Of a stretch of DNA of 64,000 nt, positions 3,019 through 48,601 are shown in pieces. The DNA comes from Candidatus Omnitrophota bacterium (lineage in GTDB: Bacteria; Omnitrophota; Omnitrophia; Omnitrophales; Aquincolibacteriaceae): NCBI GenBank assembly GCA_043732705.1, contig JAYTHE010000003.1, positions 10,352 to 74,351 on the forward strand. Direction: 5' to 3'. Position numbers and translations under genes: made by a program. Below the pieces are notes generated by a model. The model saw only the letters and a list, made by a program, of their open reading frames with translations. It was not told the DNA's origin and did not search any database. Position 1 is the stretch's first letter, and every line of letters begins with the position of its first letter.

Positions 3019-6000
3019 TTATGCGGCGGAGGAAACAATTTGAAGGGTTTGCAGTATTTGTAAGATTTTCCCAGCCATACCAAGAAAACCTGCGCGCGTC
3101 ATCTTGTAACGCTTAATCGTGCCTATTGGCTTATTTTCTTCAAACCCTTCTAACTGCCTGCTTCCGGAAAATTCTGAAAATTTTGTTGCCTGTAAATTAA
3201 GCACTAATGCGCGCTTGTCCGGAGCAACCGAATCTAAATCCGCTCGATCAAAAGTAGATACTCCTTTGACATTGGATTTATCAAAAAAATCAGCCGGAAA
3301 AATATTCAGCTTATCTTCGCTTCCGACTAAACCATATTCCGCTCCACCGAAGAATCGAGCTGCCGCATCTTTCAAAACTCTCTGGGCTTTATCCGCTGAG
3401 CCTAAAATCTCAAATTTAATTCGTCCTGAATATTTTTTGGAACTCTCCGACATTTTCCAATTCTGATTCGCTGCGGCCAAAATAAGTATTTTGTGGTTGG
3501 GCTTAGCCTCAAGCACAGGCACCACATCTCGGAGGAATTCTTCTTCGGTTGGAAGTTTATCAAGAATCAACGCTGTATTAGCATGCTCTTCGCTTGCTAT
3601 GTCGGATCGACGAATCGCATCAATCACATTTCCATTTTCAGAGCGCAGCGCCACAATCTGCGCATATTCGTCAATTGTGGAGATTTGAATTGCTTGGCGC
3701 GCTTTGAGCGTATCTGCGTTAGCCTCTTTGCTTCCGAAATTAAAAATACCCCAAGCTAATAATACGGGGATCAATTTAAAAATCCCGCGCGCTTCGGATC
3801 TTTTAAGCGCATCGGGATTGAAACCTAATTGTATTTTCTCTATACCTGAAATTTGTGATCGTAATTCGGAACGATTTGCTTTTTCTTTAGCAACTTGAAC
3901 TGCGTTTTCAAGAAATTCAAACATTTTCATACCTTTTCCGAAAGCACCAATTATTCCAAGCGCGCCGGCCTTGGCTTTAATTTCATCAGTCAAATCGCCC
4001 GTATTAAGTATAAAACTTAATTTTTCATCCATTTTCATCCACTTTTCAATAAGCGCCCAGCCTTCTTCCCCTTCTCCAACATTCTCGCCGCCGCCAGGCG
4101 GCATATCTTTATCTGTCACAATAAGTGAATATTCCTGAAAACGCTTTTGCAAGTGTTTGTCAGCTTGTTCCGCCGCATCCTGTCCAACAATCAAAGTTAC
4201 ATGATCATCTCCCACAATCATTCTCAATATATCAGCAACTACTTCTCCATTTTGCTGCTTATCATCCACAACCATGATTCTATTTCGGGGGCTCTTTGCT
4301 TCGTCCGGCTTCTGAACCATTTCCTTATCGGGTTCTAAAGCCGAAATTTTTGCAATATGCTCTCCCAGCTCAATTAAAAATTCTTCGTAAATCTGTCCGG
4401 CTCCAGACTGCACTCCCAATTGCATAATTTTATCACTCAAAGCTTCGAATTCATTTCCAAGAGTTTTGAACCCGACTATTTTTTCTTCCGTTGTCATCTC
4501 GATTGAAAAAACAAGATGCGCTAATCGGCTTTTCACAATCATCATCAAGACTTGATAGACCGGACTATTTTTTTCTAAGTGACGCGCAACATCATAATGA
4601 TTATTCACTACCTGAATTAAGAAGCTTTTAAGATTGTCCAATGCGTCGGAGCGAATTTCGGAACGAACAGCGACTTTGGGATTACCGCGCGATTTGGCGC
4701 GGTCTTCAGCTGTCGCAATGCGGTTTTCCGATCGATTTTGTTGTCCGTCGTCTACTTTACTGCTTTCCGCAGCAGATGTTGATCTTAAAATAATAATATT
4801 CTGTCCGATTTTCTTTTCGACTGTAAAATTCTCTCCCAACTCATCTTCGAAAACTCCAACTGCCACAACGCGGATTACTCGCTCCGCTCCAGTTGCTCTT
4901 AATTGCCGCATCATGACGCCAAACGATCGATCCATGTTAGGACGAAAAACATAAAAAACCGTTCCGTCTTTAAAGGGATTTGGCCGCTGCGTGGTTGCTT
5001 CGTCTATATCTTGAAAGTCTCCCTTCCAGATTGCCATTTCTTTTAAATGAATGCGTTTTTCTTCCGCTATTTTTTTCAATGCTTCAATAATTTTTTTACT
5101 CAATTCAAATAATGCATCGTCTCTCTCCACCCCTTTTGCTGCTCCTGCTTGGGTTAATAATCCCGACAGCCAAACAACACGCCCATCACCTGAGCCTAAA
5201 TCATAAATAGTGTCTTCAGCACTTAGTTGGAGTTCATTCAAAATTGCTGCGACAGTTCTTAAAGGTGTACGCGCAAAATAAGCCTCTTCCTGCACGACCG
5301 CCTGTCCATAGTTTATCGGCTCAGGATTGATTTCTTTTGCGAGCTTAGCTAGTTCATTTAATTGATCTTCCAAAGCTCCCCACCCATCCGGAAGCTTACT
5401 ATTTATTTGCTCATTAAGAACGCTCGCAAATGCATCTATCCTTTTTCCCAACTCAGCTTTTTTCTGCTCCTTCACATCCCGCATTTCGGAACGGGATTTT
5501 GATTGAAAACGCGATAGTTTTTTGAATCCTAAAAATCCCGCCAACAGTGACATCGAAATTATCGCGTTAAAATAAAGCGGGGTTAAATCAATCGGCTGAT
5601 CCGATTGCCAAATTGCGGTGACCGCCAAACCCATTAATATGAATACGCTCGCTGACATCGAAAGAATAAATGCAATCCCGGCTGATTTCCCACGCTGAAT
5701 GCTTCTTTTTTCACGGCCACTCAAAGCAACTACCACAGCCGCAATGCCCGCCAAAATCAAAGGCAAGCGGGAAAACTCTTCAAACAGGGTTTTAGCAAGA
5801 ACAGGCTCTGCCGCTTGGGGTTCGGGGAAGACTTCAGCCGCAACAAATAACTTCGATTCTGCTGTTTTAGAAAAATTGCTGCGCCTCAACATCGCAACTG
5901 CCACCCTTGTTTTCTTTGAATTGTCAGCGTCAATCTTTGCCTGTGCTTTTTCTCTTTTGGTTGCGGCTTCGGGAGTCTCGTTTTTAGGAGCACGGATTAT

Positions 6001-9000: not shown

Positions 9001-12000
9001 CTTGCGATTTGCAAACATCGCGTTGCCGCCAATGCGCGTAAACGAAAAATCTTGTATAAGATCAGAAGGCACACCTGTTTTTATTTCAATTTCGCCATTG
9101 TGCGGGTTAAGTGAAATAAAATAGCGGGTCTCCAAACTTCGAGGACGGCCTTCTTTTTCGACCTTAAAAAGGTCGAGCATCTCTTCAATCATTCCGGCAT
9201 CGTTGAGACTGCTGCTTATTTTTTCCCAAATCGTATAAAGAGCATTAGCGGCATTTTCATAACTGTGAGTTTCAATCTTAATTTCAAGCAGCCCTTGATC
9301 GGGCAAACGGGTGACTGCAACGCCCGGAATCTTCTCAATGGCCTGAGGAATAATTGTGGCCCAATCAATTCTCCGAGACACATCTTTCTCCGGCTGATAA
9401 GCCATGCTAACTTTTAAATGGTCTGCATCTTCTCTTTCAATAAAGAAAATGCCTTCGCCGCCTGCACCGCCATTGGGTTTAAATACAAGCGGGAGCTTTC
9501 GATTTCCACTCACAATCTCTCGCGCAAGACTTTTAAAATTTAAAAGATTTTCACCAGGAATGAGCTGCCGTTTTAAAACTTTAAATACGTCGCTTTCTCT
9601 TTTCGCAAGCTGTTGTGGAGCCTGTATGCCCGCAAAGAACTTAACGCCCTCAATCGGCGCACCTTTCATCATTTCTCGCACTCCCAACTTCGTAAACAAA
9701 ACATTAAAAAGATTTTGCAAAGAAATTGGATTTTGCCGCATTTCGGAGCGAGCAACTTTAGACTCGAGGGAATTGAACTCTCCAACACTCTCGAGTCTCC
9801 GGTCTTCGGCTTCCGGGCTTTCGATTTTGCGCGATTCCTGTCTGCCGGCAGGCATGGCAAAACGAAGAGGGGCCAATCCAGTTTGAAATACCGCAAGCAT
9901 CAATTGGAAAAGCGAATTAGGCGCGCCTTGCCCGGATGCAGCTAATCTTCTATCCACAAAAAATTTGCCGGCCCTGAGCAAACCCAATATACCCGTTAAA
10001 ACACCCAATGTGGTTATCCAGGGAAAAGCCGCGAAAACTGCAGCAAGTGCGCTCGCAACTCCTGCCACACCAATAACAACGAAAGCAAGAGCGGTCGGAA
10101 TACTTATCGAACGGTTCTCTGATCGATGATTGCCCGGCTCTTTCAAATTTGCAGCGACACCTATCGAGCGCAATTCATCACGCCCCTCATCATTTAACTT
10201 TCCACCTTTTGAAAGAAAGTCTTTCAAGCTCATCACGACGGGTTTTGATCCGGGCACTCTCTGAAAGATTCGTTCGGCCGATTTAATATTTTTTAAACTT
10301 TGCGGCTTTTGCAAGCGAATCACAATTTGATTAACTTGTACCAACTGAGGCAATCCATTTTTTACCTCCGTTCCATCCGATCGTCGTCGGGCTCTTCTCG
10401 CCTCAATATAACTATCCCAATTTTTTAAAGTTTTTACGTTTTTAAAGTTTTTAAGCATTGATTTCAGGCGCAATTCTGACTTTGTTCTGTCGTCTAAGTG
10501 AAATTCCAACATAATTTCCGGGTTGACTCCTTCGGGCGTACCTGCTGGAACCTCAAAGCGTTTTAAAAGTGCTGCAAGTGTGGGAAACCCCTGCTTTTTC
10601 AAGAATGCCGAGAGTTTCAACTGTCTTTCTTTCGAACCCGGCTCAAAATCAAATACAAGTGGTTCCGGCCATTTCAGTTTTTCCGCGGAACTTACCTTCT
10701 CAATGCTCTCGCCCTGCTTCCGCATTTCGGAGCGGGCCATTTCAGGCCCGAGACCCAAGGCCCGAGACCCGAGGGTTTCAAGTCTTGCATCACCGAACGC
10801 CGTCCCGGCGGGAGGGGTTAGATCTGCATGGGCCTCAAAAAGCTTTGAAAGGTTATGTGCCAAAGCAAAGGTGTCTAGGAAATTCTCGAACCCGGGGTTT
10901 TCGTAATCCTTTTCTAGATAGAGCGCCTTATCTTTCGTCAGATCAACTTGTTTACGTAATGCTGTCAAATCCGCCAGCAATTTTTCCTGGCCCGTTTCAA
11001 ACGGCAAACCGTGAGAAAAATTTTCTCGGGCTTTCTGATTGTATTTCAGCGTTGCTTCGAAAGAATAAAATAAATATTTCATTATGACCGGCACAACATA
11101 CCCATCAACAAAGTGTCCTTCATGCTGAAACCAATCAAATTCATTCAAAATGAGCATCAAGGTAAGCTGTTCATGCTCATCCGCTGAAAAAACTTGAAGC
11201 GCCTCAAAAAGTGGCACCATCGTTTTTTTCAGATAGGATTGCTTGAGGGCTTCAAGCACAACGTCGCCTCCCTCCTGTGCGCCTAAAAAAATTTCCAATG
11301 CCGCGTAATAATCCATATATTTTGAGCTGTGAACATAGTCCGTCCCCATAATTTCTTTTGTAAAGAATTCCGTCATAGCCTCATTGATGGTTGAATTGTA
11401 ATAATCAAAGGAATGATGCAGCGCCTCGTGAAGCAAGACCGACCTTACCTTTTTGGCATCGCGCGTTAACATGACCTCTTCCCTGATACGAATTTCTCCG
11501 TTTCGTATATCGTAGTCTCCATTAATGTCATCTAAGCTTCTCCACACACCTATTTGGGAAATATCAATTTTGTTCGCCGCACCCTTAAAGTAACTTTTTA
11601 ATTTTTGATTGACCCATCGCACGTGAACATCCAACACTGCGGCATAAGCAGCAGTAACATTTTCGGGGGGCTGTTTGGCTTCAACTGCCGGTTCATTTTT
11701 TGAAGACGCTACATCAGCTAACAAAAGTCCCGCTGACAACGCCTCTGCATACAAATGCTTCTGGATCTCGATCCCAGACAAATTTGTCCATTTCTCAGGA
11801 TCTAATCTTGCCGCGGCCACGGCTTCAGCTTCTACCAGAGCCATATAATGCTTAACGCCTGTTATATTGATGCGAAATTCGGAGCGGCCGGTATCCCCAT
11901 CTTCCGCGGATTTCGGTTCTCTGTAAGGGTTTAGTCGAATGATTCTTCTGATAACGTCTGTCTTAAGCTTACTAATTTGTCCCGCGGCTTTCGGGGTTTC

Positions 12001-17837: not shown

Positions 17838-17919
17838 GCCCCGAGGGTTTTAAGTTTTAAGCTAACAGCTAACTACTCAATAACCTCGTGCCTCCGGTCT
17901 CCGAACTCCGAACTAGTTT

Positions 17920-19743: not shown

Positions 19744-20044
19744 TGTTTCCTTTTTGAGCTCTGCGCTTTAAGCGCAACCGTTAATGCGAACCTTTTCCTA
19801 ATTATCTGTATTGATGAATTTCGATTGGTTGAAGCCGCGAATTATACAGCAACACATCTCAAGCTCCAAGCATCAAGTTCGAGATACACTCGATTGAATT
19901 AAATAATTTTTATCACCTGAATGTTATATCACGCCTCTTGGAATACGTCCGATAATCATCTAACTTCTAACTAGGAAGCATTCGCGCTCTCTTTCGAGGA
20001 CGCGGATCCGCTTTGGGGGCGGATTAAATTGAGAGGATACACAG

Positions 20045-20221
20045 TATGAAAACGAATTTGGACACATTGCATCGTCTGATTCGGGTAATTCTAGGTATCG
20101 TTCTGGCGGTTGTTGAATATAAACTCAAAATTCACATGGGGCTTTATTTTGTGGCAGCCCTGCTGGGATTAACGGGGCTTTTTGGTTTTTGCCCGTTGAT
20201 GGGTTTCTTCAAAAAAGATTA
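20045..20221 (+). CDS. Small membrane protein, DUF2892 (YgaP C-terminal-like) family, 58 aa. It is absent from the ORF track because it falls under 60 aa.
   Basis: Hand translation gives MKTNLDTLHRLIRVILGIVLAVVEYKLKIHMGLYFVAALLGLTGLFGFCPLMGFFKKD, a two-transmembrane hairpin. A gagagga Shine-Dalgarno-like sequence sits 8 nt upstream. Confidence 0.5.
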
Positions 20222-33454: not shown

Positions 33455-34759
33455 TTAGCGTCTGCCGCGTGGACCAAAAGAGCGCCCACCTCCGCCAAAA
33501 CCGCCGCGTCCACCGCGACCACCGCCGAAACCACCGCGGCTGCTCATTTGCCGAGGGTTAAGACGGCTCGAAGAACCGCGACTACGATCAGGAAATTTTG
33601 CGGAAGGAACATCGGGATGTTCAAGAACAGCAAGCTGTTTTTGAACCAAACGTTCAATGCGCGCAACTTCCATATATTGATCAGGCATCGCGAAAGTGAC
33701 CGCGCGGCCATGATGTCCGGCACGGCCCGTACGGCCAATGCGGTGAACATAATTGTCCAAATCATCCGGAAGATCATAGTTCACAACAAGTTCAATCGCT
33801 TGGACGTCAATACCACGGGAAGCGATGTCGGTTGCAACAAGCACGCGATAGCGTCCTGTTTTAAAACCATCTAAAGCTTCGCGCCGCTGACCCAAAGTAC
33901 GGTCCGAGTGAATCTGCGCAACATTGATTCCGGCCTGATGTAAGCCGCGGGCGATTTTAACCGCGCCGATTTTTGTGCGTGAAAAAATAAGAACGCTGCC
34001 CTTTGAAGTTTCGAGAAGTTTCACGAGCAAGCCGTTTTTATTTTCTTTTGCAACAATGTACATTTCTTGTGTTACAAGATCTGATGTTGTTCCGGGCTTT
34101 GCGATTTCAACGTAAGCCGGAAGTTGAAGATAAGTCGAAGCCAATTGCATGATTTTCGGCGGCATGGTCGCGGAGAAAAGCATGGTTTGACGTTCTTTCG
34201 GAATCTGTTTCATCACTTGACGAATTTGGGGTTCAAAGCCCATATCGAACATGCGGTCCGCTTCATCCAAAACGAGACAGTTCACATCACTTAAATTAAT
34301 CGTGCGCTGTTCCATATGGTCGAGCAAACGTCCCGGCGTCGCGAGGATAATACGCGGCTGACGGCGAAGCGCCTGAACCTGCATATGCATCGAAGCTCCG
34401 CCAATCAAAAGCGCGGTACGCATATTAAACTTGGGCGCAATTTTATTCATGGTTTCTTCCACTTGAGCAGCCAGCTCACGTGTCGGAACCACGACAAGGC
34501 CTTTGCCCTTCATAGCAGCCAAGCGCATAATCATCGGAATGGCGAACGCAAGCGTTTTGCCGGTTCCGGTTTGAGCGATACCAATAAGATCCTTACCCTC
34601 AATCGCAGGAGGCAAAGCCTGATGCTGAATGGGTGTCGGATGCTTAAATTGCATTTTATCGAGAATTTCCAGGATCATCGGCGCAATGCCGAGTCCATCA
34701 AAAGAGTGCTGATTTTGTACCGGGACAGCAGAATCCGGAGTTTTTGTAGTTGTATTCAT
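33455..34759 (-). CDS. DEAD-box ATP-dependent RNA helicase, with an RGG/Gly-Arg-rich C-terminal tail.
   Basis: Contains the Q motif, AQTGTGKTLAF (motif I), DEAD (LVLDEADRMFDMGF), SAT and HRIGRTGRAG (motif VI), plus a C-terminal GGRGGRGGFGGGG tail. Confidence 0.9.
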   Translation of the reverse strand: MNTTTKTPDSAVPVQNQHSFDGLGIAPMILEILDKMQFKHPTPIQHQALPPAIEGKDLIGIAQTGTGKTLAFAIPMIMRLAAMKGKGLVVVPTRELAAQVEETMNKIAPKFNMRTALLIGGASMHMQVQALRRQPRIILATPGRLLDHMEQRTINLSDVNCLVLDEADRMFDMGFEPQIRQVMKQIPKERQTMLFSATMPPKIMQLASTYLQLPAYVEIAKPGTTSDLVTQEMYIVAKENKNGLLVKLLETSKGSVLIFSRTKIGAVKIARGLHQAGINVAQIHSDRTLGQRREALDGFKTGRYRVLVATDIASRGIDVQAIELVVNYDLPDDLDNYVHRIGRTGRAGHHGRAVTFAMPDQYMEVARIERLVQKQLAVLEHPDVPSAKFPDRSRGSSSRLNPRQMSSRGGFGGGRGGRGGFGGGGRSFGPRGRR

Positions 34760-34846: not shown

Positions 34847-34881
34847 GGGACAATTTACAGGTTTGAGGAGGAATAAAAAAG

Positions 34882-34897: not shown

Positions 34898-34921
34898 CGG
34901 CTTTTTATTAAATGGGAATGC

Positions 34922-40900: not shown

Positions 40901-43900
40901 ATTACGCATTAATACACTCAGGTCGGAAACATTTTGCTTATGATCCAAACTTGCTCTTAATACCATTTTTTCAAAACTCCATTCATCCTCCGCAGGCGCC
41001 ACAACGCGAAACCCTAGTTTTTTAAAAACCCTGGCAATCAATTTCATGCGCAAATGATTACCCACTTTCGCACCCCCTTCAAAATAAACAAACTCTGAAT
41101 TACCTCCCATCTCGAGCGGAACTAAATTGGCATAAGCTTGCATTCGATGAACCCCGAGAGTTTTTCGCATCCAAAAATTTGTTCCCTTAAGGAGAATGCT
41201 TAAGTCGTTTGACTGTGTCACGCCGGGACTTTTCAAATTTTTCAATATCGCTTCCGGTAAAATCTTTGTCGCTAATGAAGGTTCGCCGGTGGCAACATGA
41301 TCAAGGTCTAAAAAGCTCCATTTTCCATCATGATTGATTTTGAGAACAGAATGCTCAACATAAGAATGCATCCAATTAATGAATTTATTGAGTGTGTCCA
41401 CTTTGCTTAACCCCTTTTCGGACTCAGCAGCGGTCCAAATACCACGCATACGGTCAAAGAAAACCGTGATGCTGCCGCCTCTTCCGGAGCGGACTAACTG
41501 ATATTGCGCCTCTAAGTCAGTCCATCGCTCCCTGACTCCGACAAGATCGGCTGAAGTCATCCCTTCGAAGCTTAAGAATATTTTCACGAGCATATCAAAG
41601 TTGCGCATAAACTCATCCGCTTCCGCTTGCTTCCAGCGCGAGACCGAAGCAAGCTTGATCAAAACCTCATTATGATATTTACGAAATTGATCCAAGCGAT
41701 CCGCATTATGGGTTAATTTTTGAAATTCGCCCTTGAATTGAATGGGATAATTCGCAGGCAAAATATCTTTAACTTCAATTTCATTATCCTCATGGACATG
41801 CTCAGACCCCAGTACCAAACGCAGCTTTTCCGAGGCTGCGGAATGGATGACAAGCGATATATCAGCAGAAAAATTTGCCAAAACCTTAGGGAAATCACGG
41901 CTTTCCGAACGCATGCTGGCTTTTGGATTTTGCGGCGCCGAGCGCGCTTCGGAACGTGGGGTCGGAGCTGTAGTTTCAAAGAGTGGGTTTGAAAGCTTGC
42001 TCATCTCCACCGTAGTATTTCGCAGCATTTGTTCGAAATGCTGCCGCTTAACATCAGAAGACACATCTTTCGCCAAGCGCGCGGTTAATTGCCGTTCTAA
42101 CTCTTTCGTTGTTTTAAAAAGTGTCCACCGTAGAAATGTTTTTCCATCCGTCAATTTTTCAAAAAGGGGTATTTGCTCGCGCAGCGAGGCTTCCAACTTT
42201 TCCCAGGCAATTTTTTGTTTTTGTTTTTCTTCTATCGCTTCTGTCGGAACAGTCCCGGAAGACAACTCGCCTCCAAGTGCAGCGATTTGAGCAATGGCTT
42301 TTTGGCGCAATTTTTCCAATCCAACCAGAGTAAGATCTTGAATCACATCAGGGTGAGGATCTTTTTTATCAGGAAAACCCCAAAGCTTCAGTCCGGTTAC
42401 ATACCCCTTTTCATCGCGTAAATTATAAGTGAGAATAATTCCAAGATCTTCATAACCGGGCGACATTTCTCCGTCAATATTTAAAATTCCCGAACCAAAT
42501 GAGGGAAAAAGCACAAAAGGCGACATCTGCTTATTAGGAAATTTGCTTTGTTCATTATGTCCCATAATAATAAAACCGTTGGGAGACCGATCCACAAATG
42601 AGCCGGCGGTGTGCCCCATCAACCATCCTATTTGGCCATGATCAGCAAATTTTTTTACCATATCCACTTTGGCATGCAGCAATTTATCGGAGTACCAACT
42701 CGTAATCTCTTCAAAAGCAGGCCCCAAAACATTCCAAAGGGCCCTCCTAAAAGCCATCCGTTCTGACTTACTGCCTGTAATATATTTTTCAATATCTGCA
42801 TCGCTGAGACCTTCAAAGTAGGTGCGAATATCACGTGTCATCAGTTCCAACGCCGCCAACCCTGTTTGCCCTCGGTACTTAACATTAAATTGACCCTGTT
42901 CATCAATCGGGATCATGTTATGTAAATGCAAATTGTTATAAATATCCAGATAGAAAAGACGGAAATTCCGAAGCTGATTGATCGCGCTATAAACAATCTC
43001 ACGGTCGGTGTCATAGTTCCCCAAGGTCAGCGGGGTAAAATTCTCAAAGCCGGGAAGATCGGCATATGTTTCGCGCAAAGTAACAATTTGTCGTTGATAG
43101 GCATCCATTTTTCCGCGAATCATTTTCGAAGTTTCTTCAAAAATATTTATATTGGGTAAATATGCCGGCTTAGGAATAGGATTGGGCGCACGCTTAGCAA
43201 GCAAAGCGGCTTCTTTTTCAGCGGCCATGGCGCCTTGCCATTTTTGGCGCAATTTTGAATTATGCGCCTTGATTCGTTTTAACTCCGGTTTTAAATCTTG
43301 CCGCACTTTAGCTAAGTCAATAAATTCAAAGCTTTCTGCCGCGCCAAAAGTCCTTAGCCGCTGATTAATATCTTTAACTATTTTATTAAAACGCCTTTGA
43401 TTCAATTGATCCAACTCAACGTCTCCCCAGTCAGCATGGTGGAAGGCTTCACGCAGCCAAAACCCAACATGATGTCCTGTGTGTTCCTCGGAATATAAAT
43501 CAATATCCGGGAATAATTTATGGATGCCAAGCGCACTCAACGCACGGTACTCATCATGATTGCCAAGCAAAAATCTTGCGATTGAGGTATGCACCATTTC
43601 GTCGATCAGCTCAATCGATCCCACAGGATCAGGGCCACGATCAGGCGCATCGCTAAAACCAATAATTCGCCCGAGAAATTTTTCGAGCGATAATCCTTTT
43701 TCATCCAGCTGTTCTTTTAAATCATTCAATATGTGGATGCGGGCGTAGCTATCCGCCGGGAGCCCATAAACAAAAGCAAGCAAGGCTAACGCCCGCCTTG
43801 TGCCTCCATGCAAATCCTGCATCGCGGCAACAACTGGAATATTTCCGCGACCGGGCTTGCCATCTTTTTCTAAGCCATCCAGCTCTTTTGTAATTTCATC

Positions 43901-46900
43901 CGCTAATCCCCGCAGTTCAAGAATGTTTTTTTCTGTGGGGTCCAAATCAAAAATCAGGTCGCCGGCTGTTCGAATAAATTGATTATGAAGAATCGTATAA
44001 CGATGCTCTAAGTCGGCCATTTTTGAACTGATTTTCTGGAAAAAGGCGGGCGATAAAGGCTCATGAGAAGCTCGTTCCTCCGGGCTAAGCGCGTCTATCC
44101 AACCATCGATGAATTGCACTACCGGCCCGGCAATATCTTGAAATACCACACGTACATATTTTGCACGCTCCTCGATTGAGACTTGCTCCAAACCGTATTG
44201 GTGATAAATCTTTCTCGCTTGAATTTCCCGCCGGGTTTGAAAAGGGTCTGTAGTGTCTTCCTTCAATGAGTCCGCGCCATGCTCACGATTCCACGATTGA
44301 ATCTCCGCGATCGCGTCATCGACACGTAATTCGGAACGCTTGGTGGCTTCAATGATGAAATGGTCGCCCGCGCCCGTAAGGGTGACATGCTCATTTTCCA
44401 GACGTTTTTTCACATCCTCGAGCAATTCCAATTCTTGCCCGGGATTTAAATTCTTTGTTGAAACGGTTGTAATTCGATTTTCTGATCGCGAGGGAATGGC
44501 TTTTTCGTTTCGAACTTCCGCGCGAAAAGACCGCGCTTCTTCCGGATTGATAAATCCTTTGGGGATTAGCCGTCGTGAGCGCACATCAAATTCATAATTG
44601 CGCAGCTTTGGCTGAACCTTGCTTTCTCTGTATTCATAAGCCGCAACCACCTGTTTCAAAGCATCTGAGATTTGCAACCCCGGAAGCAAGCCTTCCTCCG
44701 CCAATCTTAAAACAACCGACAGATTGTAATATCCCTTCAAATTGAACCAAACAGGTTGCCCTTTTTGGTCCGTAATGCCTTGCACAGTAATCCGTTTTGG
44801 TTTTTTTGGATTATCGAATTGAATAGCAATGGCGGCTCCGTTTTGTATGCTCGAATCAACTATTAACGTCGGAATCGCTTTTAATCTTGCATTGGCTTGT
44901 CTTGAGCGAGACCAGCGGTGACCGTCGTAATACTCGACTTTAAGCGGCGAGGCAGAACGAAATTTAAAACCGGCATCATCATGATTCACTTCGACTGTCT
45001 CGTCCTCTCCATAATTTGCTGTCACTTTTTTGTCAACCTGCTCATCAAAAGCTCGAAATTCTCCCGAAGCCTCTGCAAGACGCAGCTGATAGCCTTTCCG
45101 CAAAGGCTTTCCTGCTTCATCTGTTATTTTAATTCGAATTTTTTCGCCTTCTTTTTCAGTTTTTAAATATGTATCAAAATATTCCAAAATAAAATAAAGC
45201 TCGGGATTTTTCTTGTAACGCAGCATCACCCAGCGCGGCTGAGTTGCACGATCAACTATCATTTCAAAATCTTGCGGATGCTTCATGTAATATCCGGGTA
45301 AATAAAGCCTTCCCAAAAACTGAACATATCCATCACGTTTGGAATCTGATATTTTTCTAATTAATTTACGGTTCACTCGGCTCAGCGCGTCTAAATGCTC
45401 TTTTATTTTTTGGTGACGGCCAATCCCAGCGGCAAGAGGAATTCCAAAAAGGTCATCATAAAATGCTCGGAAGGCCGGCTGAAAATAAAGTGGCGTGTTT
45501 TGCTTCATTTTCCCATCTGGATTATAAATGTTCATTTTGCTTACGATCGCAGGCAAGTCTTTTGGTTTATAACGAAAATAAAACAAATTCTTTTTTTGAT
45601 CGATGTTGATTGAAAAAAATTTCGTCGGGTCATCCAGGCTCACCAGACGAACTTCTGTCTGACTGGAAATGGTCTCATTTCGAGCGCCTAATTCGAGTCG
45701 CAGTTTAGCGTGTAGGGCGCGCGGCAAAACAAAATGCGCTTTTTGTAGCAATGTAATTTCTCGAGAAATCACATTGTTTTTTGCTATGCCACGCGTTTCG
45801 GAGCGGGCCGACGATGGAAGGTCCTCGGCATAGTGGATTGCAGTACGCGGCAAATACACTTCGCCGGATGTAAACTCAGCCTTCACGGCAAACGTGGTGC
45901 CGCCAACCGAGGGCAGAAGAACATAAACATCATCGCCTGCCAAAATAAATTTATCGAGATCGAGCGTGCCCCCAATTTCAAAAAACCTTCCGTTGCTTAC
46001 CCTTACGCTTCCCAAATCACTCCTCTTTTTTTTCCGCCCCGCAACAACACGAACAGGGTCATTCTCCGTCAAAAGCTTTAAATCCTTTAAGCTAACGCCT
46101 CGGGACAAAGCCATGGCAATAATGTCACGCAAGCGCACGGCGCGTACCGAATCAGAAACTTGAAAACGCAATGCCGGCATCTTGTTCAGTTCTGTTTTTT
46201 CTAATGAACCCGCTTGCCTTGCCTTTAAGTACCGGAAATACGAGTTCCAACTATGGTATGGCCAAACTCCATCTCGTTTTGCTTTCCAAAATTGACGCGG
46301 AAAATAAAAAATAATTGCTGCCGTTAAAACCAACCAGGTAAATATCGCGCTTATGAATCCACTGACCGAGGCGAGCTTTTTATTTAATAATTCCACCCGA
46401 GGCATTCTTGCTATCAACGAAGCGCCAAACCCAGGCGCTTGGGGCTGCCCCGCTTCTTTTAAATCCCGCATTTCAGAGCGAACTTGATTGAGTGGCGCAA
46501 GCTGCGCGTTGTTAAAACGCATACGAAGTTCCGAGCGCCCTTTAAATATTCCGGCACTCGTGGCAAGCGCGGCTGTGACGTGGGAGTCATTGGAAACCAT
46601 CGAGGTCAGTCCACGCTGCTTGGTTCGACTTTGCTCACCACGAGTCGCATCAAGCCTGCCGGCAGGCAGGCTTGGGACAGACCCCTCTCCCAGCAAAGCA
46701 CGGCGGTAATGCGCGCGATCATCCTCGGTGATTTTTGAGATGCGCGGCATCACTTCAACATACGCGTATTGATTTTTTTGCGCAAACTCACGCATACCAT
46801 CGCTGTGAAAACCACCCGTGACAATAACCTCTATACGCCTCTGGCGTGGGCCGTGGCTCGTGGCAAAAGATTCGCTGAAATAATTGTTTAAGTTCTTGGT

Positions 46901-48601
46901 GAATGATCGTTCACGAGCAATCGCACCTTGATAAAACTGAATGGCATTGTCGTAAGTTTTTTCTAAATCAGAAAAAGAACCGCTACGCACACTCCCGGTG
47001 ATAGGCTGAGGCTCAATACCGGAAGTGTTCTGAAAGACCGCTTCTAACTGCTGCACAACCTCAGATGGTTTGAAGCTGTTTTCTGTCGTTGGTCTTCGGT
47101 CGTCAGTCGTTAGTCGTTTTTCTATTTTTTTAAATTCCGAGCGGCTTAGTTCCAAATGAAGCAATTTATGAAGCAGAATATATTTTTCAAGCACCTTGAT
47201 AAGTTTTATACCTTTATCTATTTCCAAATGGTCATTCCCGCGAGGGCGGGAATCTAGCCCTAAATGTTTCTGGATTCCCGCCTTCGCGGGAATGACAGAG
47301 GCCGCTTCTTTCACAATCTGCGCGTGCATTTTCTCGGCTTCTTTTTGCAATTCAACGGCATCCATTTCTCCACTCAAAATAATTTGAGCAATCCATGCTT
47401 TCAGTTCCGGCCACTTATCCATCGAAAAATTGTTTGGCAAATAAACCGCAAGCCGCTCAAAAACTTCGCGGGCGGCAGAAAAATCAGCGGGAGCTTCGGG
47501 GTCAATTCCGCGGGTTTTAGCTTTTTCGATTAGATTGTCGATTTCTATGAGAATCGCCTTAAGCGACGAAGCACCACGCTGCGCCCCCTCGGGGGATGCC
47601 ACGGGCAACCCCCGAGGAGTCTGCGCTTCAAGTCGTCGGTCTCTAGTCTCTGGTCTCTGGTCCAGACTTTTTAAAGTTTCTAAAAAGTCTAGTTTTTGTT
47701 TTTCTATTTTTGAAAAGTCGGCCGCACGCGCCAAATTTTTAAGATGGTAATACCGCACAAGCATCGGAAATTCGATTTGTTCGTGAATATCCGCAAGATC
47801 ACGCTTCCACACAGAATCAGCATATTGTTGAATCGCATTGAACCATTCCGCTGATTCCACCGCGTCAAGGCGGCTCCTAGCATAAGCTTCCAGATATTTT
47901 TTAAGTGAAGGACTGAGAAAATGAATCGCGGCATCTTGCCAGCGCGAAAAGAAAGATCTTAAAAAAGCCCGGCTTTCCGTAAGTGCGGAATCAACTTTGC
48001 GGTATTGCTCGACATTGTCCCAGTAAGCCGCAGCGTCTTCGATTCCATACCCTTTTACATTTTTTGATTTCATTAGAAATGTTTCCGCGCCGGTTAAGTC
48101 GCCATCGCGCATCCACGCATTACGTTCCGTCGCAGTCAGTTTTTTACCCCCGGGGAAAAAATGATGCAGGTCAGGATCGAGCTCTCCCGTCCCGCCTTCT
48201 AAATATATTTCATGAATCCCACCTTGAGATTGCATTTCGCTAAGCATGTTCTGAATATTCTGCTGAGCATCCAAAACAGCGTGCGCATCTTGAATGTGAA
48301 CCAGAGTACCGTGTGAATTTTTCGGAACAACTTTCTCGGTCACCGTACCAAACCGGGCGCTTGGTTTCCATGTTTCAAAAACTGAGACTTCCGGCGATGA
48401 CTCCGCAAAGGAAAGCACCGCTGCTTGCGCTGTGTCCGGAGTTAACACCTGCGTGAGCACATATAGAGGTATCAGCGCGATGGCCCCAAATTTACGGTAT
48501 TTGCGAGGAAGATTAAACATTTTATAGAAGATAACCGACTTACTTTTTTTTTCAAGTGCTACACAAGCAGGAAAGTGAACATTTTTTAAATAGAAAACCA
48601 C
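34922..48601 (-). CDS. Giant secreted multidomain protein (4559 aa, or 4532 aa from the internal Met at 48520), giant protein 3.
   Basis: A continuous 13.7 kb ORF. The internal Met gives MFNLPRKYRKFGAIALIPLYVLTQVLTPDTAQA, a better signal peptide than the first Met. It shares the IQDAH / GGFHSDG N-terminal module. It carries a PPP-family metallophosphatase domain, a PEP-utilizers swivel domain plus a PPDK_N ATP-grasp domain, and about 12 R-S-E-x-R motifs. The C-terminal tail is conserved with giant protein 1. Confidence 0.85.
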   Translation of the reverse strand: MVFYLKNVHFPACVALEKKSKSVIFYKMFNLPRKYRKFGAIALIPLYVLTQVLTPDTAQAAVLSFAESSPEVSVFETWKPSARFGTVTEKVVPKNSHGTLVHIQDAHAVLDAQQNIQNMLSEMQSQGGIHEIYLEGGTGELDPDLHHFFPGGKKLTATERNAWMRDGDLTGAETFLMKSKNVKGYGIEDAAAYWDNVEQYRKVDSALTESRAFLRSFFSRWQDAAIHFLSPSLKKYLEAYARSRLDAVESAEWFNAIQQYADSVWKRDLADIHEQIEFPMLVRYYHLKNLARAADFSKIEKQKLDFLETLKSLDQRPETRDRRLEAQTPRGLPVASPEGAQRGASSLKAILIEIDNLIEKAKTRGIDPEAPADFSAAREVFERLAVYLPNNFSMDKWPELKAWIAQIILSGEMDAVELQKEAEKMHAQIVKEAASVIPAKAGIQKHLGLDSRPRGNDHLEIDKGIKLIKVLEKYILLHKLLHLELSRSEFKKIEKRLTTDDRRPTTENSFKPSEVVQQLEAVFQNTSGIEPQPITGSVRSGSFSDLEKTYDNAIQFYQGAIARERSFTKNLNNYFSESFATSHGPRQRRIEVIVTGGFHSDGMREFAQKNQYAYVEVMPRISKITEDDRAHYRRALLGEGSVPSLPAGRLDATRGEQSRTKQRGLTSMVSNDSHVTAALATSAGIFKGRSELRMRFNNAQLAPLNQVRSEMRDLKEAGQPQAPGFGASLIARMPRVELLNKKLASVSGFISAIFTWLVLTAAIIFYFPRQFWKAKRDGVWPYHSWNSYFRYLKARQAGSLEKTELNKMPALRFQVSDSVRAVRLRDIIAMALSRGVSLKDLKLLTENDPVRVVAGRKKKRSDLGSVRVSNGRFFEIGGTLDLDKFILAGDDVYVLLPSVGGTTFAVKAEFTSGEVYLPRTAIHYAEDLPSSARSETRGIAKNNVISREITLLQKAHFVLPRALHAKLRLELGARNETISSQTEVRLVSLDDPTKFFSINIDQKKNLFYFRYKPKDLPAIVSKMNIYNPDGKMKQNTPLYFQPAFRAFYDDLFGIPLAAGIGRHQKIKEHLDALSRVNRKLIRKISDSKRDGYVQFLGRLYLPGYYMKHPQDFEMIVDRATQPRWVMLRYKKNPELYFILEYFDTYLKTEKEGEKIRIKITDEAGKPLRKGYQLRLAEASGEFRAFDEQVDKKVTANYGEDETVEVNHDDAGFKFRSASPLKVEYYDGHRWSRSRQANARLKAIPTLIVDSSIQNGAAIAIQFDNPKKPKRITVQGITDQKGQPVWFNLKGYYNLSVVLRLAEEGLLPGLQISDALKQVVAAYEYRESKVQPKLRNYEFDVRSRRLIPKGFINPEEARSFRAEVRNEKAIPSRSENRITTVSTKNLNPGQELELLEDVKKRLENEHVTLTGAGDHFIIEATKRSELRVDDAIAEIQSWNREHGADSLKEDTTDPFQTRREIQARKIYHQYGLEQVSIEERAKYVRVVFQDIAGPVVQFIDGWIDALSPEERASHEPLSPAFFQKISSKMADLEHRYTILHNQFIRTAGDLIFDLDPTEKNILELRGLADEITKELDGLEKDGKPGRGNIPVVAAMQDLHGGTRRALALLAFVYGLPADSYARIHILNDLKEQLDEKGLSLEKFLGRIIGFSDAPDRGPDPVGSIELIDEMVHTSIARFLLGNHDEYRALSALGIHKLFPDIDLYSEEHTGHHVGFWLREAFHHADWGDVELDQLNQRRFNKIVKDINQRLRTFGAAESFEFIDLAKVRQDLKPELKRIKAHNSKLRQKWQGAMAAEKEAALLAKRAPNPIPKPAYLPNINIFEETSKMIRGKMDAYQRQIVTLRETYADLPGFENFTPLTLGNYDTDREIVYSAINQLRNFRLFYLDIYNNLHLHNMIPIDEQGQFNVKYRGQTGLAALELMTRDIRTYFEGLSDADIEKYITGSKSERMAFRRALWNVLGPAFEEITSWYSDKLLHAKVDMVKKFADHGQIGWLMGHTAGSFVDRSPNGFIIMGHNEQSKFPNKQMSPFVLFPSFGSGILNIDGEMSPGYEDLGIILTYNLRDEKGYVTGLKLWGFPDKKDPHPDVIQDLTLVGLEKLRQKAIAQIAALGGELSSGTVPTEAIEEKQKQKIAWEKLEASLREQIPLFEKLTDGKTFLRWTLFKTTKELERQLTARLAKDVSSDVKRQHFEQMLRNTTVEMSKLSNPLFETTAPTPRSEARSAPQNPKASMRSESRDFPKVLANFSADISLVIHSAASEKLRLVLGSEHVHEDNEIEVKDILPANYPIQFKGEFQKLTHNADRLDQFRKYHNEVLIKLASVSRWKQAEADEFMRNFDMLVKIFLSFEGMTSADLVGVRERWTDLEAQYQLVRSGRGGSITVFFDRMRGIWTAAESEKGLSKVDTLNKFINWMHSYVEHSVLKINHDGKWSFLDLDHVATGEPSLATKILPEAILKNLKSPGVTQSNDLSILLKGTNFWMRKTLGVHRMQAYANLVPLEMGGNSEFVYFEGGAKVGNHLRMKLIARVFKKLGFRVVAPAEDEWSFEKMVLRASLDHKQNVSDLSVLMRNTKIAMDMLLRIVNTDQALRDLAESYSKDELDQIIEAWSQKIILTAGKVTPIDIPMNYTKSSAGEDDTAAVPQKIVVSKGKFWESPEPYDDAQNVEFRENGKKIHSALQSTLAALGLEAMPEYDSAVFGQIFIETFFNSVVSRTVNAGRIIQGAHGYEINPHYIASSPIRNFVETWQDLSKRENLIQMGQMVSNTTFRLKHIGLIGQAMVYSAEVSLITGTIEVVLVRSADKKSLLAGGIWSQGQLLTPDAASILLSRSNIEIHVSKSQPGDYARLADNLEMEFRTPAEGSIYTGEAIQGFGFLPGTATGPIRFSEGAQEGDILYVSTLNEGNINLLRMANGVISEVGNKLDHFNTRAKHFGKPRVQVSHAVLKPSSGGGAALEISGKIVDRAENFQGYPLIQAVTDGENIRIEEGDLVTINGTTGMIHWLGKDPVVLEAYHTISSIEKAATASELEKQIQKLIEIISRAVQAKNILLVKFILRQIIFDGTLLSPAHKRGSLAQLFQSGEGKYFEQLKNLLSPADDELREGIKAYLKTLYRHAKGQILRDFSRAREAVGVVARLDQIYYEIRRLRTEVAAFQAVQSFLGEIVLGEPGIDLNSKQESVFGEIQKTIRHLKAQLEERVSEIIEQNKKHPFNQETYFLLARILERVAAFEKLGIRLEKINQKQVAKLKKDAVQIQKQRRARRDALRKKRLIALSDTGIDYYEITGNKGANLGWLNHFVDWYNGQKKNKSMRLSVALGYAVTAHAFNEFLDQTVMGQGPKAQTLRAYVKSVLADRLLSIKEKSQKIEEAFLAQELPQEMSEEISRVVSGGLWAVRSSTKLEDTPRSSAAGLFATNLGATTPALVEKYLRQTWASLYGEPSLSYLWDADPADFFDLLKDEGAVIQQLISADTSGVISSVEISSDDRGFMVINAGYGLGQAIVDADQDADAIVVDKVTKIPQIFPGEKRKKTIVDGKGATMNVETTPEERNTVSLSRAQIAELTDITLALEEWFGYVVQVEFAIKDSVIYLLQIRPIPGFKVPKKERPALAKWAGMIASQEPFKKQRSEARSNQKLEVAESHVGRMSRENFNGESFSHENFNWKSVLGLAAAGLTGLGLALSGAWIPALFISAAAVYFGASFIPPSQGSLTRSGYPVFDSIRGAIDHLKIGFRAASNSPSRSEIRTPAESVKYLYGQWEDLERQNVIIQAKVAYPGVLTNEEGFNQIWKRTSGYGKGVEFSLEHSATDLRQEFQRLSQKGDITPDDLGGLLGKVESHKRRLDVLSAHLMVTDVMTAERRNQSYVIFEAAQAYTNFWKKVITELQQHLKMPADKLYARQGIQAAGFVFELMLGGRMDLAGENERLIEELEAELERVTNDNLPKNTLKILQDLINRRWEFTAFAENPEEMRARHAYLDELKTFAAQTYIMVLSSEQKLSTAQASLAPLLNIMIKIHDYAFAASNDWPTDWNHDRQGLKESLGYVLEQMQKKYRSESRDDTGSLSQRAEIRVQTMLEGSKRIFDESDHWIKTEDLNGNLVDDLIWEAGKIVRVRTRMADGSFIVLDSNGDGVVHSAEIEEGPVFIDWQPGINLNDIQHIPFAEITNEPSPKGSAPSVFRIMALLLMDQKKTSVAYWGNEGAVQAPTDRLFNSLAETMLPQAEVSIDDLSHFVNMQRRGFAQTSGLADYMADELGVLRMKFQIYPRDVKWVPHPFERIFFQTQKGLASIDVRGGKAQRLYYDDEVYLAPQFLFGTLDFHAQRHTIREEDGVFKAYVEDEHVLTVDKTGKVLFERSEMRLEKKVEVKATARSEHRAIEPVVVPKNKIIALKIMAARLFADGILSVKDAVYYLKHHEEFLAVLPLLVSTEQKKQNLAHLTGMLGVDIQVKDGIVLSPALVREGFLAAAKEVFEGVPFALIASGSEKIKAVQWIQTNKLTERIFVAENIREARVWLTRHGVTRIQGMALAGEEALPDFDELIRFTTGQLQKFYDRAGILGEVQHLARIFSVFASAA
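38000..38800 (-). other. PPDK_N / PEP-synthase-type ATP-grasp (PEP/pyruvate-binding) domain inside giant protein 3.
   Basis: ITGNKGANLGWL matches GGKGANL. WAVRSSTKLEDTPRSSAAGLF matches the [20 protein letters not shown] signature. SGVISSVEI...VINAGYGLGQAIVDAD matches SGV.FT.DP...NA.WGLGE.VVsG. Confidence 0.65.
39700..39900 (-). other. PEP-utilizing-enzyme mobile (swivel phospho-His) domain-like segment inside giant protein 3.
   Basis: GNKLDHFNTRAKHFGKPRVQVSH aligns with the GGRTSHAAIVARELGIPAVVG signature, with the His conserved. It is followed by DGENIRIEEGDLVTINGTTGMI, which resembles kdGdlvtvDGstGeV. Confidence 0.5.
43400..43900 (-). other. PPP-family (ApaH/PrpA-like) metallophosphatase domain inside giant protein 3.
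   Basis: Motifs appear in the canonical order: AAMQDLHGG (DxHG), FSDAPDRGPDPVGSIE (GDxxDRGpd) and LLGNHDEYR (GNH[DE]). GNHDE is encoded at about 43546..43560. Confidence 0.6.
47231..47296. repeat. Two family-A palindromic repeats in opposite orientation, in-frame in giant gene 3.
   Basis: gtcattcccgcgagggcgggaatc (47231..47254) and ggattcccgccttcgcgggaatgac (47272..47296). They translate as …VIPAKAGIQKHLGLDSRPRGNDH…. Confidence 0.75.

Follow-up and report, generated by a model that had tools for sequence, protein, structure and literature searches.

Three giant genes of an Omnitrophota bacterium belong to one family with a putative hydrolase head, a short conserved tail and fast-diversifying bodies

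We analysed a 64,000-nucleotide stretch of contig JAYTHE010000003.1 from a Candidatus Omnitrophota bacterium (the window, with position 1 as its first letter), which carries three giant genes, G1, G2 and G3, within 46 kb. Omnitrophota are ultra-small, host-dependent bacteria, and their enormous proteins are a recognised puzzle. The reading that we prefer, with a probability of roughly 0.6, is that G1–G3 encode anciently diverged paralogues, mid-sized relatives of the very long Omnitrophota proteins that combine a signal peptide with transmembrane (TM) segments, and that each carries a hydrolase head, anchored at the envelope, on a body that diversifies fast. The three genes are as follows.

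3019..16791, minus strand: G1, a 4590-codon open reading frame (ORF) with an ATG start; family member
22983..33083, minus strand: G2, a 3366-codon ORF with an ATG start; family member whose body has no recognisable domain
34922..48601, minus strand: G3, a 4559-codon ORF from GTG, more likely 4532 residues from the ATG at 48520

In the proposed architecture, every member would have three fixed elements, namely, a Sec signal peptide, an exported head of approximately 470–600 residues and a C-terminal helix of approximately 22 residues ending in [S/A]-Ala-COOH. The head would have a core of the TIKI/TraB/erythromycin-esterase/ChaN type, with a parallel sheet, split by a helical insertion of approximately 380 residues. 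Between head and tail, a body of 0.3 to more than 7 thousand residues would be essentially unique to its lineage, often membrane-threaded and rarely equipped with a recognisable domain. The Sec pathway would export the head, which would work at the envelope as a His/Glu hydrolase, peptidase or esterase, while internal TM segments would distribute stretches of the body to both sides of the membrane. Modules that depend on ATP or S-adenosylmethionine (SAM) would thereby be cytoplasmic, including the ATP-grasp and swivel-His domains of G3 and perhaps the methyltransferase and receiver of G1. Head and tail would both be required for one common step of protein handling, anchoring or processing, as suggested by their co-conservation across otherwise unrelated bodies, and the body would be free to diverge or be replaced rapidly, as for envelope or surface molecules facing hosts or prey. 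These genes had been described in an earlier note on this DNA, which overlooked the fold of the head, the extreme turnover seen in the bodies and the conservation of the tail at the C-terminus.

Signal-peptide-like starts, already described for the three proteins, were found in all of them by inspection, and each is followed by a head module. The coordinates are listed below.

16690..16791, minus strand: G1 Sec-type signal peptide, residues 1–34 (...TINTCFADA), with a KK n-region, a hydrophobic core and an AxA-like site
33000..33083, minus strand: G2 signal peptide, residues 1–28 (...FAQDIAYA)
48419..48520, minus strand: G3 signal peptide (MFNLPRKYRK...TPDTAQA, followed by A)
14872..16680, minus strand: G1 head, residues 38–640, with putative catalytic residues H83, E111, R571 and H597
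31509..32918, minus strand: G2 head, a shorter variant, residues 56–525, with H85, E113 and H465, located by the family profile and BLASTP
46658..48325, minus strand: G3 head, residues 93–648, with H107, E135 and H599, located by the family profile and BLASTP

Putative cleavage sites lie between ...CFADA and G in G1, between ...AYA and N in G2, and between ...AQA and A in G3, and the signal peptides suggest that the heads are exported. The GTG start of G3 (48601) sits 27 codons upstream of the ATG at 48520 (Met28; MFNLPRKYRK...). This ATG is the more plausible start because it yields a canonical signal peptide; no obvious Shine–Dalgarno sequence was seen at either candidate.

Comparison of G1, G2 and G3 with each other by BLASTP detected the N-terminal region as the sole similarity. 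G1 76–646 aligned with G3 100–648 at 22% identity over approximately 600 residues (E = 2e-20), and G2 25–240 aligned with G3 63–263 at 23% identity over 221 residues (E = 1.5e-8). The homologous N-terminal module reported before is thus real but old. All three N-termini matched one common set of Omnitrophota proteins, G1 at 35–43% identity and G3 and G2 at 20–28%. Expect values in BLASTP searches of the heads against family members went down to 4e-33 for G3 and ranged from 1e-10 to 1e-5 for G2. The family profile scored G3 at E = 5.7e-157 and G2 at E = 1.2e-119, partly by construction, as their own heads are in the profile.

To delimit the family, a head profile made from an alignment of 14 sequences (A1) was searched against 1.84 billion cluster representatives (50% identity). 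The search matched at least 9,448 of them at E <= 1e-3, of which 5,894 passed the stricter limit of E <= 1e-30. Among the best 150 matches, the module started within approximately 100 residues of the N-terminus of proteins of 395–7,498 residues and was nearly always present in a single copy per protein. The median length was approximately 1,800 residues across the 162 family proteins collected. All homologues of the G1 N-terminus came from Candidatus Omnitrophota metagenome-assembled genomes. A scan of one genome per species, using the A1 profile without G2 and G3, confirmed at least 403 family loci; all named records in the best 80 were Omnitrophota/Omnitrophica, and several family copies per genome were common. 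In agreement with the earlier suggestion of a lineage-specific family, G1–G3 represent one uncharacterised family, which is multi-copy and appears restricted to Omnitrophota. The accompanying picture of a recently expanding local cluster did not hold: the three heads are only 20–25% identical to one another, compared with 60% for the G1 head and its syntenic orthologue, indicating that the paralogues are old and that no recent local expansion took place.

The genome scan also provided two observations on gene arrangement. G2-like and G3-like heads lie adjacent in divergent orientation in locus L066 (8294-9466, minus strand, and 9917-11530, plus strand) and likewise in L070, so that this adjacency recurs in an arrangement unlike that of the present window. 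In other loci, edge-cut ORFs of 3130, 3240 and 3265 residues carry the helix and [S/A]A tail, their N-termini lying beyond the fetched DNA; such long tail-bearing ORFs near family genes suggest that clusters of giants are not unique to the window.

The heads had no Pfam match even at E <= 1 on tiles and no NCBIfam match. Since no curated model of either database covers the head or the G2 protein, the module is rightly called uncharacterised, as had been proposed. AlphaFold2, supplied with the 14-sequence alignment, modelled G1 30–660 with a predicted local distance difference test score (pLDDT) of 74 and a predicted template modelling score of 0.71. In the model, strands from both ends of the module form a small alpha/beta core, with the helical insertion of approximately 380 residues between them. 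The solved structures listed for the head fold, each with its value, were 2rad (Ere-like, Bacillus; 9.6), 8bqs_DQ (TraB-family protein; 9.1), 2qgm (Ere-like, Bacillus; 8.6), 6xcq (EreC; 8.3), 2g5g (ChaN; 8.1), 5t09 (HopBA1; 8.0) and 5w6l (RRSP; 7.8). With the TIKI/TraB/erythromycin-esterase/ChaN superfamily the predicted head shares an alpha/beta fold with a central parallel sheet.

Four columns of the head alignment are invariant. A His stands directly after strand 1, in HIQ[D/N]AH; a Glu stands in VEGA after strand 2, with a His-to-Glu spacing of 28 in G1, G2 and G3; and near the end of the module an Arg in FY..A..RE is followed, 26 residues on, by a His in TGGFH. These residues are constant across heads with as little as 20–25% identity, G2 and G3 included. 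The active site of the TIKI/Ere-type fold is a 2His/2Glu set adjoining the core strands, represented by H85 and E113 in Bcr135 and by E3900-x-H3902, E3930 and H4030 in RRSP, in which R4001 is needed for substrate recognition; an Arg is reported 29 residues ahead of the second His (PMC6254334). The 28-residue spacing in the family matches those of Bcr135 (H85/E113) and RRSP (H3902/E3930) (PMC6254334). The head therefore resembles TIKI, TraB-PrgY, erythromycin esterase, ChaN and RRSP proteins in the order and spacing of its His, Glu at +28, Arg and G-x-x-H His. It differs from the superfamily in that no sequence-profile search linked it to a member in Pfam, NCBIfam or the PDB, in the insertion that splits its core, in the 2His/2Glu set, where Asp or Asn takes the place of Glu as the first acidic residue, and in bodies that are thousands of residues long. 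Like the domains of TIKI and PrgY, the family head would be extracytoplasmic and tethered to a membrane protein. Taken together, the predicted fold and the invariant residues suggest that the head is a His/Glu hydrolase.

The same residues bear on the alternative that the head is non-catalytic, either a ChaN-like binder of haem or another ligand or an inactive TIKI fold of the PMT-C1/C2 kind, the proteins being envelope scaffolds or spacers and their bodies filler. The Asp or Asn at the first acidic position, the dominance of the helical insertion within the module and the near absence of conservation in the bodies would all suit such a scaffold. However, invariance of His, Glu, Arg and His at 20–25% identity is typical of catalytic residues, and the bodies keep normal coding statistics, a globular composition and thousands of stop-free codons, which would be hard to maintain without selection. 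We regard a scaffolding head as rather unlikely.

The second conserved element of G1–G3 lies at the extreme C-terminus.

3022..3096, minus strand: G1 tail, amphipathic helix ...LQIVSSAA-COOH, located by the C-terminus-anchored family pattern
22986..23060, minus strand: G2 tail, ...FVMSARRFSTQA-COOH, with A at -1 and Q instead of S/A at -2
34925..34999, minus strand: G3 tail, ...ARIFSVFASAA-COOH

G1, G2 and G3 end in ...LQIVSSAA, ...ARRFSTQA and ...FSVFASAA, respectively, and a C-terminal Ala was found in none of the 17 other proteins of the window. A C-terminal Ala was present in 131 of the 162 family proteins, preceded by S or A in 122. The SA or AA ending is present in 123 of the 145 proteins of at least 900 residues (G1 added) and, among the 29 that reach 4,000 residues, in 28; the proteins without [S/A]A are mostly short and probably truncated entries. 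In the genomic loci, the ending was detected in 31/43 family ORFs with a stop codon versus 17/439 other ORFs of at least 250 residues (odds ratio 64; Fisher p = 6e-27, inflated by relatedness), and approximately 10 of the 17 non-family ORFs resemble the ends of further giants. Anchored at the C-terminus, the register of approximately 22 residues consists of A at -1, A or S at -2, a small residue at -9 and hydrophobic residues at -5, -8, -11, -15 (98% L/I/V), -18/-19 and -22. This pattern describes an amphipathic helix that would run to the free carboxylate. Hidden Markov models of the last 60, 150 or 400 residues, made from homologues of approximately 1000 residues, did not detect the giants; this failure of longer C-terminal profiles to connect members suggests that only the register-anchored tail is conserved there. 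Approximately one-third of the tail-bearing members, including 24/33 of those of 900–1300 residues, have no hydrophobic segment past the signal peptide, and in these TM-free members the tail would be extracytoplasmic alongside the head.

Between head and tail, recognisable domains are sparse.

4930..5328, minus strand: G1 class I SAM methyltransferase, residues 3822–3954, IYDLGSGDG (Pfam DOT1, E = 6e-7, 29.6 bits vs cut-off 23)
11407..11595, minus strand: G1 SprT-like/zincin candidate, HEALH at residue 1788 (Pfam E = 0.002, 18.2 bits vs cut-off 25.6; below threshold)
3922..4278, minus strand: G1 receiver-like domain, residues 4172–4290 (Pfam Response_reg, E = 0.025, 15.2 bits vs 30.2; below threshold)
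39626..39949, minus strand: G3 swivel phosphohistidine domain of phosphoenolpyruvate (PEP)-utilising type, residues 2885–2992 (Pfam PEP-utilizers, E = 7.5e-6, 25.9 bits vs 23.1, on a tile)
37838..38776, minus strand: G3 ATP-grasp domain of the PEP synthase/rifampin phosphotransferase type, residues 3276–3588 (Pfam PPDK_N, E = 1e-46, 160 bits vs 27)

Searches of Pfam (whole and tiled), NCBIfam and PADLOC left more than 90% of G1–G3 unannotated. The enzyme domains recognisable by Pfam make up a few percent of the sequence, with one above threshold and two below in G1 and two in G3; G2 yielded no domain from Pfam, NCBIfam or PDB sequence searches. Relatives of the methyltransferase and the ATP-grasp domain were the only matches in PDB sequence searches with G1–G3. 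Among the domains that the earlier note had assigned to G1, the methyltransferase stood. It has an intact motif I (IYDLGSGDG) and an acidic GVERDD, as expected for a DOT1/aKMT-like enzyme, and among solved sequences it comes closest to the archaeal lysine methyltransferase 5fa8 (E = 0.001) and to DOT1L. The metallopeptidase-like HExxH and the receiver remained below threshold, the DD / D / T / K positions of the latter being visible by eye.

For G3, the proposed phosphotransferase module was upheld, with further support from the PEP synthase, PigC and RPH families of NCBIfam, at scores far under the equivalog cut-offs, and from PDB entries 5hv2/5fbs (E = 3e-18). As in PEP synthase, rifampin phosphotransferase and PigC, a PPDK_N ATP-grasp domain is combined with a PEP-utilizers mobile domain, which keeps its catalytic His (..KLDHFNTRAKHFGKP.. 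/ ..KLDHFNTRA..). In contrast to these enzymes, the swivel domain lies approximately 280 residues upstream of the ATP-grasp domain, the reverse of the usual order; PF02896 had no match in G3, indicating the absence of a PEP/pyruvate-binding barrel; and the module is embedded in a membrane protein of 4,500 residues. The 901-residue phosphotransferase segment has only distant PEP-synthase-like relatives, 24–28% identical. The phosphatase that had also been assigned to G3 was not found with Pfam or NCBIfam. A gene for a PAS-SpoIIE (PP2C-type) phosphatase (49986-51158, minus strand) may be the source of that assignment; it has the orientation of G3 and lies approximately 1.4 kb upstream, with a plus-strand FAD oxidoreductase gene (48766-49977) in between.

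Elsewhere in the family, 18 other members showed no more than occasional WD40, PfkB, HPr and DUF218 domains. Self-BLAST and TRF detected no internal repeats in the giants beyond small palindromic elements. An AlphaFold2 model of G1 3760–4590, made without an alignment, had a pLDDT of 37.6, low even over the methyltransferase control, and is uninformative on the folding of the body.

Membrane segments were called by Kyte–Doolittle hydropathy with counts of flanking charges, giving four internal hydrophobic segments in G1, eight in G2 and four in G3.

9970..10113, minus strand: G1 hydrophobic hairpin, residues 2227–2274, with Kyte–Doolittle values up to 2.5 over approximately 40 residues
5521..5778, minus strand: G1 TM cluster, residues 3672–3757, two clear helices around a K/R-rich loop and a possible third
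25800..30950, minus strand: G2 region with approximately eight hydrophobic segments, residues 712–2428, by hydropathy
46298..46375, minus strand: G3 first TM helix, residues 743–768, right after the head, with hydropathy 2.2 and K/R on both flanks
37520..37636, minus strand: G3 hydrophobic hairpin, residues 3656–3694, by hydropathy

The two clear helices of the G1 cluster are 3672–3694 and 3702–3728, and a weak stretch at 3740–3757 is a possible fifth helix of the protein. The hydrophobic stretches of G2 are residues 712–737, 1174–1197, 1314–1356, 1466–1490 and 2359–2428, and G3 has a further weak segment at 4372–4390. These segments and hairpins indicate that G1–G3 are threaded through the membrane and not released, and the single helix past the head of G3 would place its ATP-dependent module in the cytoplasm. 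The description of the three as secreted multi-enzyme megaproteins is accordingly not supported on either count, with TM segments in all three and enzyme domains that make up a few percent of the sequence.

That description corresponds to a rival reading, in which the proteins are released extracellular effectors with many catalytic domains, exported whole and attacking a host, prey or cell walls. Consistent with it, all three proteins have signal peptides, the TM-free third of the tail-bearing members would be fully exported, and the sub-threshold zincin-like HExxH of G1 falls in a segment predicted to lie outside. In addition, giant proteins of Omnitrophota are read as surface- or prey-directed in one preprint (bioRxiv 10.1101/2023.11.21.568195). 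Free effectors are nevertheless difficult to reconcile with several strongly hydrophobic internal segments in each of G1, G2 and G3, with confident enzyme domains that all need ATP or SAM and are sensible in the cytoplasm alone, and with the small catalytic fraction, which is nil in G2. No glycoside hydrolase, lysozyme, dockerin or adhesin repeat was found in G1–G3, and Pfam detected no secretion-system genes among the proteins of the window. We consider release of the whole proteins unlikely.

In contrast to the ends of the proteins, the bodies are almost without detectable relatives. The G1 body (3,890 residues) matched only itself among 5.8 billion proteins, and searches of the G1–G3 bodies against the 162 family proteins and 80 loci gave no match at E < 1e-5, except for one marginal match of 326 residues. 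The nearest genome, UBA2337, keeps the gene order, with the tail of a G2-like gene, the permease, TypA, RluA and a G1-like gene. Identities to the window are 97.5% for TypA, 75.5% for RluA, 68% for the permease and 60% for the G1 head. At residue 645, identity drops abruptly to approximately 15%, the background level, although at least 3,925 codons of the orthologous ORF are free of stops; the G2-like ORF upstream ends in ...VTQTSA and has no similarity to G2. Giant homologues in related genomes, which had been named as a check on the family, are thus present, including this syntenic one.

Comparison of head pairs across the family gave a similar picture. For heads 60–80% identical, body similarity was detected in only 29–47% of cases, over approximately one-quarter of the body. 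For heads 80–95% identical, some pairs had colinear bodies at 22–43% identity and others had unrelated bodies. The heads of P0015 and P0020 are 91% identical and their bodies 27%, and L003 and L004, from one genome (assembly CAZSVD01), combine heads 92% identical with bodies lacking detectable similarity. The latter pair suggests either that recombination or gene conversion affected the head alone, or that the body was swapped at the junction. Very fast divergence and replacement at the head–body junction both seem to occur in the family.

An abrupt junction between conserved heads and unrelated bodies in a multi-copy family is also what a polymorphic-toxin-like or contact-dependent system would show, with an N-terminal trafficking domain and interchangeable cargo diversified by inter-bacterial conflict, and the L003/L004 pair would then reflect recombination at the boundary. 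In such a system the extreme C-terminus would vary, whereas here it is conserved. No small immunity-like gene follows G1–G3, whose downstream neighbours are a pyrophosphatase, a permease and a DEAD-box helicase, and the neighbours in 80 other loci are housekeeping genes. Toxin, Rhs, RTX and filamentous-haemagglutinin domains were not found, PADLOC and Pfam being empty apart from the methyltransferase, and internal TM segments are ill-suited to a delivered toxin. This explanation is very improbable. G1–G3 resemble LapA/RTX adhesins and polymorphic toxins, by analogy of architecture only, in having conserved terminal modules, a long variable middle and a signal-like extreme C-terminus. They differ from LapA/RTX adhesins in their Sec signal peptide and internal TM segments and in lacking RTX, Ig-like or tandem repeats, and from both groups in that no dedicated transporter or immunity genes lie near family genes in the window and the 80 loci.

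Several results weigh against our preferred reading of a hydrolase head on a membrane-threaded, diversifying body. No PDB structure matched the head model significantly in Foldseek, the A1 profile did not match any PDB sequence, and insert-free head cores searched against Pfam at E <= 10 hit no family of the TIKI clan (TraB_PrgY_gumN, Erythro_esteras, Cofac_haem_bdg). The four invariant residues were assigned as putative catalytic positions from their order and spacing only. By the simplest count of helices, the G1 methyltransferase would lie in the cytoplasm only if the weak fifth helix exists, and on the crude scale used the parity of TM segments is inconsistent across the family (39 members with zero, 37 even and 47 odd), the topology having been drawn from a hydropathy scale and not from a trained predictor. 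Fast evolution of the bodies could simply reflect weak constraint. Finally, ORF clustering around 80 family loci revealed no conserved partner gene such as a protease, transporter or secretion system. On balance, a TIKI/Ere-like hydrolase head is the best-supported reading of the structural model and remains a putative assignment rather than an established membership. The insert-free cores also gave stray weak Pfam matches that we do not interpret, namely, MtxA_C (5e-4 in one sequence) and DUF5694 (0.02 in P0016), the latter covering the ...VTGGFHTDG... strand-His region. The recurrent neighbours in the 80 loci were all housekeeping genes, encoding UvrD, LplA, GcvP, MgsA, PheT, an acyltransferase and a PilZ protein.

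G1, G2 and G3 are confirmed as real genes. The ORF listing returned each of them uninterrupted, with the coordinates given above, and the probability of staying stop-free over these lengths is 10^-87 to 10^-118 from the base composition of the strand, in line with the earlier argument that chance cannot produce such ORFs. The remaining five frames of the same DNA contain 127–380 stops each. The 17 neighbouring genes served to train a codon-usage model, which scored the annotated frame highest in 79/79 sliding windows of 300 codons along G1–G3. A Logan contig from run SRR23617244 is 100% identical to window positions 15153-33350 (18,198 bp), and this independent assembly spans all of G2 and the first 546 codons of G1. 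Exact searches of public contigs with TypA and G1 gave no match, G2 alone being traced, to this Logan contig. The ORF listing, frame scoring and Logan contig together bear out the three long same-strand ORFs. G1 and G2 are identical to database proteins P0163 and P0150, respectively, and G3 equals P0106 except for the first residue, where Met stands instead of Val. Each is a singleton cluster at 90% identity in the public protein collection, from one NCBI contig (76,516 bp). The presence of the family head at the start and the family tail at the very end of each ORF, in one frame, argues against frameshift or truncation. The possibility of chimeric assemblies or of decaying pseudogenes that happen still to be open, which might draw on the metagenome-assembled contig, the singleton status of the proteins and the in-frame palindromic repeats inserted in G1 and G3, is largely refuted and scarcely credible beside these open frames, the shared frame of head and tail, the identical assembly over 18.2 kb and the syntenic giant orthologue in UBA2337.

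Two palindromic elements were observed in these genes and elsewhere in the window. The first, with the core CACATC[C/G]GATGTG, occurs at five sites in the window against 0.03 expected by chance, including 15411-15466 (G1), 63217-63261 (the valyl-tRNA synthetase, ValRS, ORF) and 34805-34845 (intergenic, between the stop of G3 and the start of the helicase gene). The intergenic copy is a perfect 41-bp palindrome, and the copies inside genes are composite palindromes of approximately 55 bp inserted in frame. In the G1 head the element encodes PVHIGCVQGCAHPMWTGS, which forms a low-confidence loop of the model, and in the anticodon-binding domain of ValRS it encodes VHIGCVQGDTSDVYRV. It resembles the in-frame selfish palindromes of Rickettsia. 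The second, a hairpin element of the form GGATTCCCGC-N4-GCGGGAATGACA, occurs at six sites against 0.08 expected, including 15150-15180 (G1), 47229-47298 (G3, two inverted copies), 58345-58410 (start of a TPM gene and intergenic) and 1109-1126. It is read in frame as SVIPAQAGIQT in the G1 head, as SVIPAKAGIQKHLGLDSRPRGNDH in the G3 head and as MFLSFPRRRESK at the start of a TPM-domain ORF, and some insertions specific to G1 and G3 in the head alignment are due to it. The same hairpin was found in other Omnitrophota loci (L050 11284-11301, L020 and L075), in one case inside another family head.

The genes that separate the giants, an RluA/TypA/permease block and a helicase, were identified by Pfam as the earlier note had described them.

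16944..22128, minus strand: housekeeping block of an RluA-type pseudouridine synthase, TypA/BipA and an amino-acid permease-Usp fusion (Pfam), between G1 and G2; a synteny anchor outside the system
33455..34759, minus strand: DEAD-box helicase (Pfam DEAD and Helicase_C), between G2 and G3

The helicase is a housekeeping gene, and no evidence ties it to the giants. After it, approximately 240 bp ahead of the G2 start, lies a terminator-like hairpin with a 14-bp stem and a T tail (33322-33353, minus strand), suggesting that G2 has its own promoter. Further flanking genes encode an ROK kinase, a pyrophosphatase, the FAD oxidoreductase, the PAS-SpoIIE phosphatase, an ABC transporter, FeoB, TPM/LemA, UvrB, NadC, ValRS and tRNA-Met, the tRNA being the sole RNA family matched in an Rfam scan of the window. 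At 52484-53983 (minus strand), a family-3 solute-binding domain and an ABC permease domain are encoded by one fused ORF, followed by the ATPase gene (51719-52402). At 57010-59007 (minus strand), a LemA gene and two TPM-domain genes form a common envelope-associated trio, and the tRNA-Met gene (59129-59205) lies just upstream of LemA.

Giant proteins with signal peptides and TM segments are already known in Omnitrophota, and the general phenomenon is therefore not new, contrary to the novelty that had been suggested. Two preprints describe such long, multi-enzyme proteins: Omnitrophota proteins of more than 30,000 residues with many TM helices (West-Roberts et al. 2023, bioRxiv 10.1101/2023.11.21.568195), and 916 proteins of at least 10,000 residues, 94% with a signal peptide and/or TM helices, which include a "multi-enzyme" class in a mostly sequence-unique landscape (Nielsen & Lui 2026, bioRxiv 10.64898/2026.06.07.730766). 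G1–G3 clearly belong with this phenomenon and resemble the published giants ("Archaeovorin", "multi-enzyme metabolic cluster") in their phylum, in the combination of a signal peptide with scattered TM helices, in being mostly dark to Pfam with sporadic enzyme domains of cytoplasmic type, in sequence-unique bodies and in the presence of several genes per genome; the comparison of topology sets DeepTMHMM in the catalogues against hydropathy here. G1–G3 differ in size, their 3.4–4.6 thousand residues being under both thresholds (>= 10,000 and > 30,000 residues). Whole and tiled Pfam searches of G1–G3 found no SecA-DEAD-like domain, C39/S8 peptidase, glycosyl hydrolase/transferase or NUDIX domain of the Archaeovorin type; dockerin and TSP3 were likewise absent, and no type II secretion or pilus genes flank the three genes. 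In the literature searched, we found no unifying head-and-tail signature, no putative TIKI-like head and no report of conserved ends around unrecognisable syntenic bodies, and the sections of the two preprints that were consulted contain no description of a conserved TIKI-like head or [S/A]-A tail.

A more specific possibility is that head and tail form a matched pair, in which the head, as an enzyme or receptor, would bind or cleave the tail tag in cis or on a neighbouring molecule, thereby anchoring, releasing or joining head-to-tail the hypervariable bodies at the cell envelope, in an undescribed, self-contained sorting or processing system of Omnitrophota. We put this forward as speculation that is probably not correct in this form. 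If it were true, the matched pair would be a generic chassis displaying arbitrary, quickly replaced cargo up to giant size, and the coupling of head and tail would represent a new principle of protein sorting or processing.

The giants of Omnitrophota have been catalogued in published work mainly by length and Pfam content. Our results suggest that many long proteins of the phylum belong to one family, tested here up to 7,498 residues, and provide two handles on it. The profile finds and classifies members whatever their length or the fragmentation of the assembly, while the tail marks true C-termini. Moreover, expression and assay can be directed at a domain of approximately 600 residues, with four candidate catalytic positions, instead of at a megadalton protein. 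Almost nothing else in the genome turns over as fast as the middle region, which raises the evolutionary question of whether selection for diversity or the replacement of modules at a sharply defined boundary is responsible. Purely by analogy, the body may diversify because it faces outward in a host-dependent bacterium.

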